Program-made: the position numbers and the translations under genes | Source: a virus | Virus genome (UHGV): UHGV-0071483 | Length of the DNA stretch: 16,668 bases | Strand: one strand, 5' to 3' | Notes under the pieces: generated by a model | What the model saw: only the letters and a program-made list of their open reading frames with translations | Told to the model about the DNA's origin: nothing | Database searches by the model: none | Part shown: positions 10,500 through 10,822 of the stretch, one piece after another | Layout of the letters: each line of letters opens with the position of its first letter | How positions within the stretch are numbered: position 1 is the first letter of the stretch

Positions 10500-10822
10500 C
10501 GACGTTAACTCAATGCCAGTAGCAGGTGCTGGATATGCTGATTTCTTACCAGAAAGAACGTGGCTTCCCGCCAACCAATCAGGAGGTGGCAACCATGCTG
10601 GGATACCGTTCAGTGAATGCAGCGGTGGAACATCTTCGCGCACTGGAGAAAAAAGGCGTCATCACGATAAAGCGTGGCGTGGCCCGGGGTATCACTCTTC
10701 ATACCGCGGTGAAGGACGACGACAGCGAGGCGGTCGGGATTATCCGCTCACTGCTTGCCGGTGAGGAAAACGCCAGGCTGCGTGCAACCCACTGGTTACA
10801 TGAGAGAGGCCTGAAAGTATGA
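10496..10822 (+). pseudogene. LexA N-terminal DNA-binding-domain homolog (no peptidase domain) with an in-frame TAG at 10520-10522; alternatively an intact shorter CDS from GTG 10526
   Basis: MTTLTQCQ(TAG)QVLDMLISYQKERGFPPTNQEVATMLGYRSVNAAVEHLRALEKKGVITIKRGVARGITL aligns by eye with LexA residues 1-70; ATGA coupling at 10496. Confidence 0.5.

Follow-up and report, generated by a model that had tools for sequence, protein, structure and literature searches.

Between a Dam-type methyltransferase gene and rusA, the DNA analyzed here (the window, 16,668 nucleotides in its entirety) carries a LexA-like gene whose ninth codon is an amber stop. We asked whether this TAG is a genuine lesion, the sign of a gene that in fact starts further downstream, or an error in the sequence, and what product such a gene could still yield. 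The original prediction had left three outcomes: a fresh pseudogene, a gene rescued by reinitiation just past the stop, or a sequencing error.

The reading frame between dam and rusA

Direct reading of the window confirmed the predicted coordinates and the coupling of the LexA-like start to the methyltransferase stop. The start codon ATG 10496-10498 overlaps the dam TGA (10497-10499) as ATGA, codons 2-8 read ACG ACG TTA ACT CAA TGC CAG (TTLTQCQ), and the amber TAG at 10520-10522 is codon 9. In the same frame, the sequence continues with CAG GTG(10526) CTG GAT ATG(10535) CTG ATT TCT TAC, and 99 sense codons lie between the TAG and a TGA at 10820-10822, which overlaps the rusA start (ATG 10819), again as ATGA. 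An ORF list reports this remnant as a 98-aa frame with a GTG start, 10526..10822. The features of the region are given below, with Shine-Dalgarno strength expressed as the energy of the anti-Shine-Dalgarno duplex in kcal/mol and the native start serving as the comparison.

9846-10499, + strand: Dam-type N6-adenine methyltransferase gene (Pfam PF05869 Dam, E = 1.2e-45; homologs annotated as phage N-6-adenine-methyltransferase; 217 aa as called elsewhere)
10483-10487, + strand: native Shine-Dalgarno core GGGAG for ATG 10496 (-8.2 kcal/mol, 7-nt spacer)
10496-10519, + strand: native start and codons 2-8 (MTTLTQCQ), now an 8-codon stub (direct reading)
10520-10522, + strand: amber TAG at codon 9, CAG (Gln9) in homologs (reading and homolog comparison)
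10524-10528, + strand: weak Shine-Dalgarno-like AGGTG for ATG 10535 (-4.6 kcal/mol, 6-nt spacer)
10526-10528, + strand: in-frame GTG (Val11), candidate restart codon for a 98-aa product (3 nt past the stop; +0.3 kcal/mol)
10535-10537, + strand: in-frame ATG (Met14), candidate restart codon for a 95-aa product (12 nt past the stop)
10580-10597, + strand: internal ribosome-binding site CAGGAGGTG, 6 nt, for ATG 10595 (Met34) (-11.6 kcal/mol)
10523-10822, + strand: remaining LexA-like frame, codons 10-108 and TGA, intact (amino acids as in the commonest full-length allele)
10819-11214, + strand: rusA, Holliday-junction resolvase gene (Pfam PF05866; own Shine-Dalgarno, -7.9 kcal/mol, 8-nt spacer)

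Further 3' of rusA, Pfam searches identified genes for a KilA-N protein, a DUF968/HNH protein and a Q antiterminator, and the dam/LexA-like/rusA neighborhood is the "nin-like" region of a lambdoid prophage. Between rusA and the KilA-N gene, just 5' of the latter, we noted a match to the SOS box, TACTGTATTTATGAACAGTG (CTGT-N8-ACAG, 11260-11279), whose position suggests that this antirepressor-type KilA-N gene may be LexA-controlled. The window holds three CTGT-N8-ACAG matches where 0.22 are expected; the other two fall inside coding sequence, at 6043 (in a cI-like gene) and at 7271. We considered a fixed module of LexA-like gene and SOS box and rejected it, as the intergenic box is found in just 18 of 101 related loci.

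Elsewhere in the window, a gene for a 157-aa protein with a SocA_Panacea domain and a partner gene for a 182-aa protein that has no Pfam match occupy positions 50-1094, and may form a Panacea-type toxin-antitoxin pair. The protein of the ORF listed at 35-523 is not on record as such; the called gene encodes 157 aa from position 50. About 700 nt between a YfdP-like gene and the cI-like repressor gene (4875-5576) have small ORFs listed and no gene called in identical public contigs. On one public contig that extends past the window (L151:4571-9978), host lexA lies ~4.3 kb left of window position 1, and the gene order runs dgkA, lexA, dinF, a CsbD-family gene (yjbJ), a FUR-family gene (zur), a DUF2713 gene and the prophage region.

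Codon 9 in homologs and the fold of the encoded protein

Comparison with homologous prophages showed that codon 9 is CAG, with C at the position of 10520, in all 123 copies that were fetched (120 IMG/VR contigs and three annotated records). The IMG/VR set comprised at least 120 contigs matched by a 30-mer with N at the variable base, and every one of them has C. The ATGA overlap at the start is present in 122 of the 123 copies, and MTTLTQCQQQVLDML is encoded in all of them. In H1827/12, mEp460 and SfV, a 327-nt coding sequence (108 aa) is annotated from the same ATG with CAG as codon 9; H1827/12 is the closest allele, and base 10520 is the only difference between its gene and that of the window.

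The dam/LexA-like/rusA segment is common: 2,288 of the 5,426 complete E. coli genomes carry it at 95-99% identity, as do 50 phage records. When the whole window was compared with complete E. coli genomes, none contained it identically, the best covering 83% at 97% identity. A 71-mer centered on the TAG found no perfect match in complete E. coli genomes (~2,840 copies in 2,220 of them) or among 50 phage and 16 plasmid records; the best match was always 98.6%, with one mismatch. A 30-mer containing the TAG likewise had no exact match in GTDB species-representative genomes, IMG/VR or JGI metagenome contigs.

We aligned 25 full-length family members from E. coli, Salmonella, Citrobacter and Hafnia, down to 65% identity, and found residues M1, L4, T5, Q8, Q9, L12 and L15 to be invariant. 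All aligned members have an uninterrupted frame of 106-108 codons from the conserved ATG, which the TAG breaks in the window copy, and none of the 25 starts at the codon equivalent to GTG 10526 or ATG 10535. Residues 2-69 of the protein align without gaps with residues 2-69 of E. coli LexA, so codon 9 corresponds to LexA Gln9, and the glutamine that the original prediction had expected from a LexA alignment running through the stop is borne out. Because CAG stands in all homologs and the N-terminus is invariant, the upstream frame is real and conserved, and the TAG displaces an invariant glutamine. An in-frame stop where intact homologs have a sense codon is one mark of a nonsense pseudogene, and the homolog comparison supports the predicted replacement of CAG by TAG in a gene whose normal start is the ATG coupled as ATGA to dam. 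The pattern that would have spoken for a downstream start, namely homologs beginning at the later GTG or ATG behind a non-conserved upstream frame, is the opposite of what the invariant M1, L4, T5, Q8 and Q9 and the 108-aa annotations show.

The dam gene is missing in six loci, and there the LexA-like ATG is coupled (TAATGA) to a PerC-like gene; thus, stop-start coupling to whatever gene lies 5' is conserved. The mutated C lies in GCCAGCAGC and not in CCWGG, which led us to reject a Dcm-site deamination hotspot.

All protein analyses were run on the repaired 108-aa sequence, with glutamine restored at codon 9. This sequence matches the Pfam family PF01726 LexA_DNA_bind with 69 bits over profile positions 1-65 of 65 (cutoff 23.7), and phrog_362 ("transcriptional repressor") with 1.1e-59 over residues 1-108. 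Pfam gave no match to Peptidase_S24 in the repaired product. The missing S24 protease domain explains why the TIGR00498 LexA equivalog model is matched at profile positions 1-91 of 203 only, with 70.8 bits against a cutoff of 110.95. Lacking the protease domain and scoring below the equivalog cutoff, the protein falls outside the strict definition of a LexA repressor.

An AlphaFold2 model (pLDDT 83) shows helices at residues 6-22, 28-35 and 40-52, the last being recognition helix 3, strands at 56-58 and 66-68, and two additional helices after the wing, at 75-87 and 93-103. The top Foldseek matches to this model are 3jso and 1lea, over the N-terminal ~68 residues at an rmsd of 1.0-1.2 Å. Residues 1-69 are thus modeled as a LexA-type winged helix-turn-helix domain, which a short two-helix tail follows. 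Judged from its sequence, the gene encodes solely the DNA-binding domain of LexA and is a small, widely conserved prophage accessory gene.

Within the tail, residues 85-90 (SLLAGE, window 10748-10765) include A88-G89-E90, which phmmer aligned with low posterior probability to the autocleavage site A84-G85-E86 of LexA. Across the family A88 and E90 are nearly invariant, and position 89 varies between G (the window allele), N and K. Since the 108-aa protein has no protease domain, the A88-G89 site would be usable solely by cleavage in trans; such cleavage of this putative site by LexA- or cI-type S24 proteases is speculative.

Origin of the stop and the product that may remain

To locate the TAG in public data, we looked up the exact 95-aa product from ATG 10535. 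Three contigs carry the TAG:

L126/L151: GCA_052754425.1, DBKGRO010000021.1, 74,147 bp
L132: GCA_043305335.1, DAYRAJ010000021.1, 74,860 bp
L133: ENA ERZ27239376, k119_2259, 74,041 bp, a metagenome assembly

L126, L132 and L133 are each 100.000% identical to the window over overlaps of 6.3-16.1 kb (16,134 bases at most), and about nine further places show the same neighboring proteins together with the same 95-aa call. The window may itself derive from one of these contigs. L132 and L133 differ from each other by 26 SNPs, all of them within 1.4 kb of the contig tip in a repeated terminase region, and these could therefore reflect assembler-specific resolution of the repeat. The TAG-bearing assemblies may accordingly represent the same clone, or re-assemblies of the same runs, and not independent isolates.

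We judge it likely that the TAG is a genuine and recent C-to-T amber mutation in one E. coli prophage lineage, which has cost the lineage the 108-aa protein and most likely left an allele that is null or strongly reduced in function. Ribosomes that start at the ATGA-coupled ATG 10496 terminate after eight residues, a step that can be read directly from the codons, and for this reason the full-length protein is lost under standard decoding. Some of the terminating ribosomes may then restart 12 nt further on, at ATG 10535 behind its weak AGGTG, and make a 95-aa product. This product would be without residues 1-13, and with them roughly half of helix 1 and the invariant L4, T5, Q8, Q9 and L12; it is probably unstable or weakened. 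Translation of rusA would probably be sustained by its own Shine-Dalgarno sequence, the presence of which means that rusA is not wholly reliant on coupling to the LexA-like frame.

As for the age of the lesion, the repaired 108-aa sequence is the commonest allele, found on at least 1000 contigs, and the 99 downstream codons of the window encode the same amino acids. A single-base gap to the nearest allele and unchanged downstream codons fit a recent event, though an intact downstream frame is also expected from continued selection on a restart product.

The stop is followed by two in-frame start codons of unequal promise. GTG 10526 has no Shine-Dalgarno-like sequence upstream, and ATG 10535 lies within ~40 nt of the stop and has such an element, the combination by which restart sites are recognized (PMC5972666). 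Section 19 of that review reports from Adhin and van Duin that post-termination bacterial ribosomes can scan both upstream and downstream over distances above 40 nt, and that restart falls on the first start codon with a Shine-Dalgarno-like element upstream. By the rule given in that section, the AGGTG makes ATG 10535 the most plausible restart site; from the codons and their spacing, restart there is possible, and at GTG 10526 less so. Gene callers have called the 95-aa product from ATG 10535 on the TAG-bearing public contigs.

With helix 1 placed at residues 6-22 by the model, the 95-aa form loses 8 of its 17 residues, and the 98-aa form loses 5 of the 17 and keeps L12, in agreement with the original view that a restart would remove part of this helix. 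Both forms keep the recognition helix (40-52) and the wing, and both still match LexA_DNA_bind above the cutoff of 23.7 bits, the GTG form with 52.5 bits (profile 12-65) and the ATG form with 49.9 bits (profile 18-65). Residual function of either truncated form is nonetheless unlikely.

Further into the frame, the site CAGGAGGTG upstream of Met34 is near-consensus, and its duplex energy equals that of the strongest genuine sites scored in the window. ATG 10595 is 72 nt past the stop, and a 75-aa product from it would miss helix 1 and most of helix 2. Gene callers chose the Met34 start where the 5' end of the gene is missing (the 75-aa cluster member P0004). The site may have arisen incidentally from the conserved N-Q-E-V codons, or it may serve to start a 75-aa product internally.

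Two other explanations would leave the 108-aa protein in being, and we regard both as very improbable. In one, the T arose in sequencing or assembly, position 10520 really holds C, and nothing interrupts the gene. The TAG is indeed a one-base difference from an otherwise identical allele, it is missing from all curated complete genomes, phages and plasmids searched, and the assemblies that do carry it may not be independent; yet several assemblies from different pipelines agree on the T in their consensus, namely two from NCBI and a metagenome assembly from ENA, and there are the nine or so look-alikes in addition. Presence of the same TAG in three public contigs makes a random read error unlikely, and site 10520 is neither in a homopolymer nor in low-complexity or repeat sequence. 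In a stop-to-stop comparison of ORFs with ~150 related loci, every other genuine gene of the window appeared unsplit, which marks the lesion as isolated; general prophage decay or poor assembly was rejected, since the apparent splits elsewhere all lie in non-coding frames. Of the three outcomes first proposed, sequencing error is now the unlikely one, with the TAG in at least three public assemblies, and the allele may be either a fresh pseudogene or one partially rescued by reinitiation. In the other explanation, the host reads UAG as glutamine, through a supE-type tRNA-Gln or near-cognate readthrough, and so restores the wild-type sequence. The lost residue is glutamine, just what a supE-type suppressor or a near-cognate tRNA-Gln places at UAG, and the stop is followed by a C, which in E. 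coli generally weakens termination. Amber suppressors are rare in natural isolates, however, and readthrough without one usually amounts to about one percent or below. A search for tRNA genes came up empty both in the window and in 30 kb of contig flanking it (loci L132 and L151), so neither holds a phage-borne suppressor.

The remaining alternatives accept the mutation and differ in what they make of it. Functional rescue, with efficient reinitiation at GTG 10526 or ATG 10535 and a 98- or 95-aa protein that folds, binds DNA and serves as a viable short isoform, strikes us as unlikely, if less so than the two explanations above. Its appeal lies in start codons only 3 and 12 nt past the stop, one of them with an AGGTG at a 6-nt spacer, in the rescanning over more than 40 nt described in the cited section of PMC5972666, and in truncated products that remain above the Pfam cutoff with an untouched recognition helix and wing. 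These points are countered by Shine-Dalgarno sequences that are weak (-4.6) or absent (+0.3) next to the native -8.2, by the loss of L4, T5, Q8 and Q9 (and of L12 from the ATG start), by a helix 1 that is 5 or 8 residues short of its 17, and by the 25 aligned full-length members, not one of which starts at these codons. The downstream frame has no second lesion, a point in favor of rescue that is uninformative because secondary lesions would be missing anyway if the mutation is recent.

The other alternative concerns selection, and draws on further lesions at the same end of the gene. A 7-bp tandem duplication of AATGCCA in codons 6-8 shifts the frame in E. coli B574 (GCA_002110045.1, OSK29521.1, 98 aa; L124:2975-3000) and recurs in SRR024199 (L129/L134), and was not found in complete RefSeq E. 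coli genomes. Four contigs have an IS110-family element between dam and the LexA-like gene, with the ATG intact. The 5' end has thus been hit independently at least twice, by the amber and by the duplication, with IS110 additionally just upstream of an intact start, and the frame from Met14 on is intact in all three cases. Selection in lysogens might have favored silencing of an uncleavable LexA mimic that disturbs the SOS response of the host, or production of a short, restarted isoform with altered activity, for example a dominant-negative one, but we hold this to be improbable. The 5' lesions are rare against thousands of intact copies, and we read them as the usual attrition that accessory genes undergo.

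Taken as a recent amber mutation, the TAG is real but ordinary: a lineage-specific nonsense allele that is already in public data, where it is called as a 95-aa protein. By itself the lesion is of little importance, being a single nonsense allele of an accessory gene that is common in prophages. For annotation, it is a warning: in the "LexA family" entries of 95 and 98 aa, a broken 108-aa gene has been called in truncated form. The LexA-like gene is present in ~40% of complete E. coli genomes, and the lineage offers a natural knockout for testing the role of this widespread LexA-domain-only prophage protein, a putative regulator.

Comparison with known regulators and restart systems

The gene belongs to a prophage LexA-domain family (PHROG 362) that includes SfV orf42, mEp460_046 and WP_000210170.1, in which the same gene occupies the same position between dam and rusA with the same ATGA couplings, at 96-99% DNA identity to the window gene. 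The window copy differs from these relatives in having TAG for CAG at codon 9, and in being called at 95 aa in public data.

Over residues 2-69, E. coli LexA (PDB 1LEA, 3JSO, 1JHH) is ~50% identical to the prophage protein in a gap-free alignment and superposes on the model with an rmsd of about 1.0 Å. S39, N41, A42 and E45 of the recognition helix are common to both proteins. Unlike E. coli LexA, the prophage protein has no S24 autoprotease, and two short helices take the place of the catalytic domain.

Restart proteins that arise after early amber mutations are known from the classic cases of lacI and T4 rIIB. The window resembles them in pairing an early nonsense codon with in-frame GTG and ATG codons within 3-12 nt, one of which has a Shine-Dalgarno-like sequence, and the lesion with its possible restart would by these features be of the classic amber-restart type.

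A search for experimental literature on the E. coli prophage LexA-domain protein found none, and GIL01 gp6 was the only analogue to surface. This truncated LexA homologue of a Bacillus tectivirus has been shown experimentally to activate P3, a late promoter (Fornelos et al. 2018, PMC6182141). Like the prophage protein, gp6 is a phage-encoded LexA winged helix-turn-helix without a cleavage domain (PMC6182141). GIL01 gp6 ends after the wing and the prophage protein has an extra tail of ~35 aa. By analogy over the shared domain, GIL01 gp6 would be the closest studied functional counterpart of the prophage LexA-domain protein.
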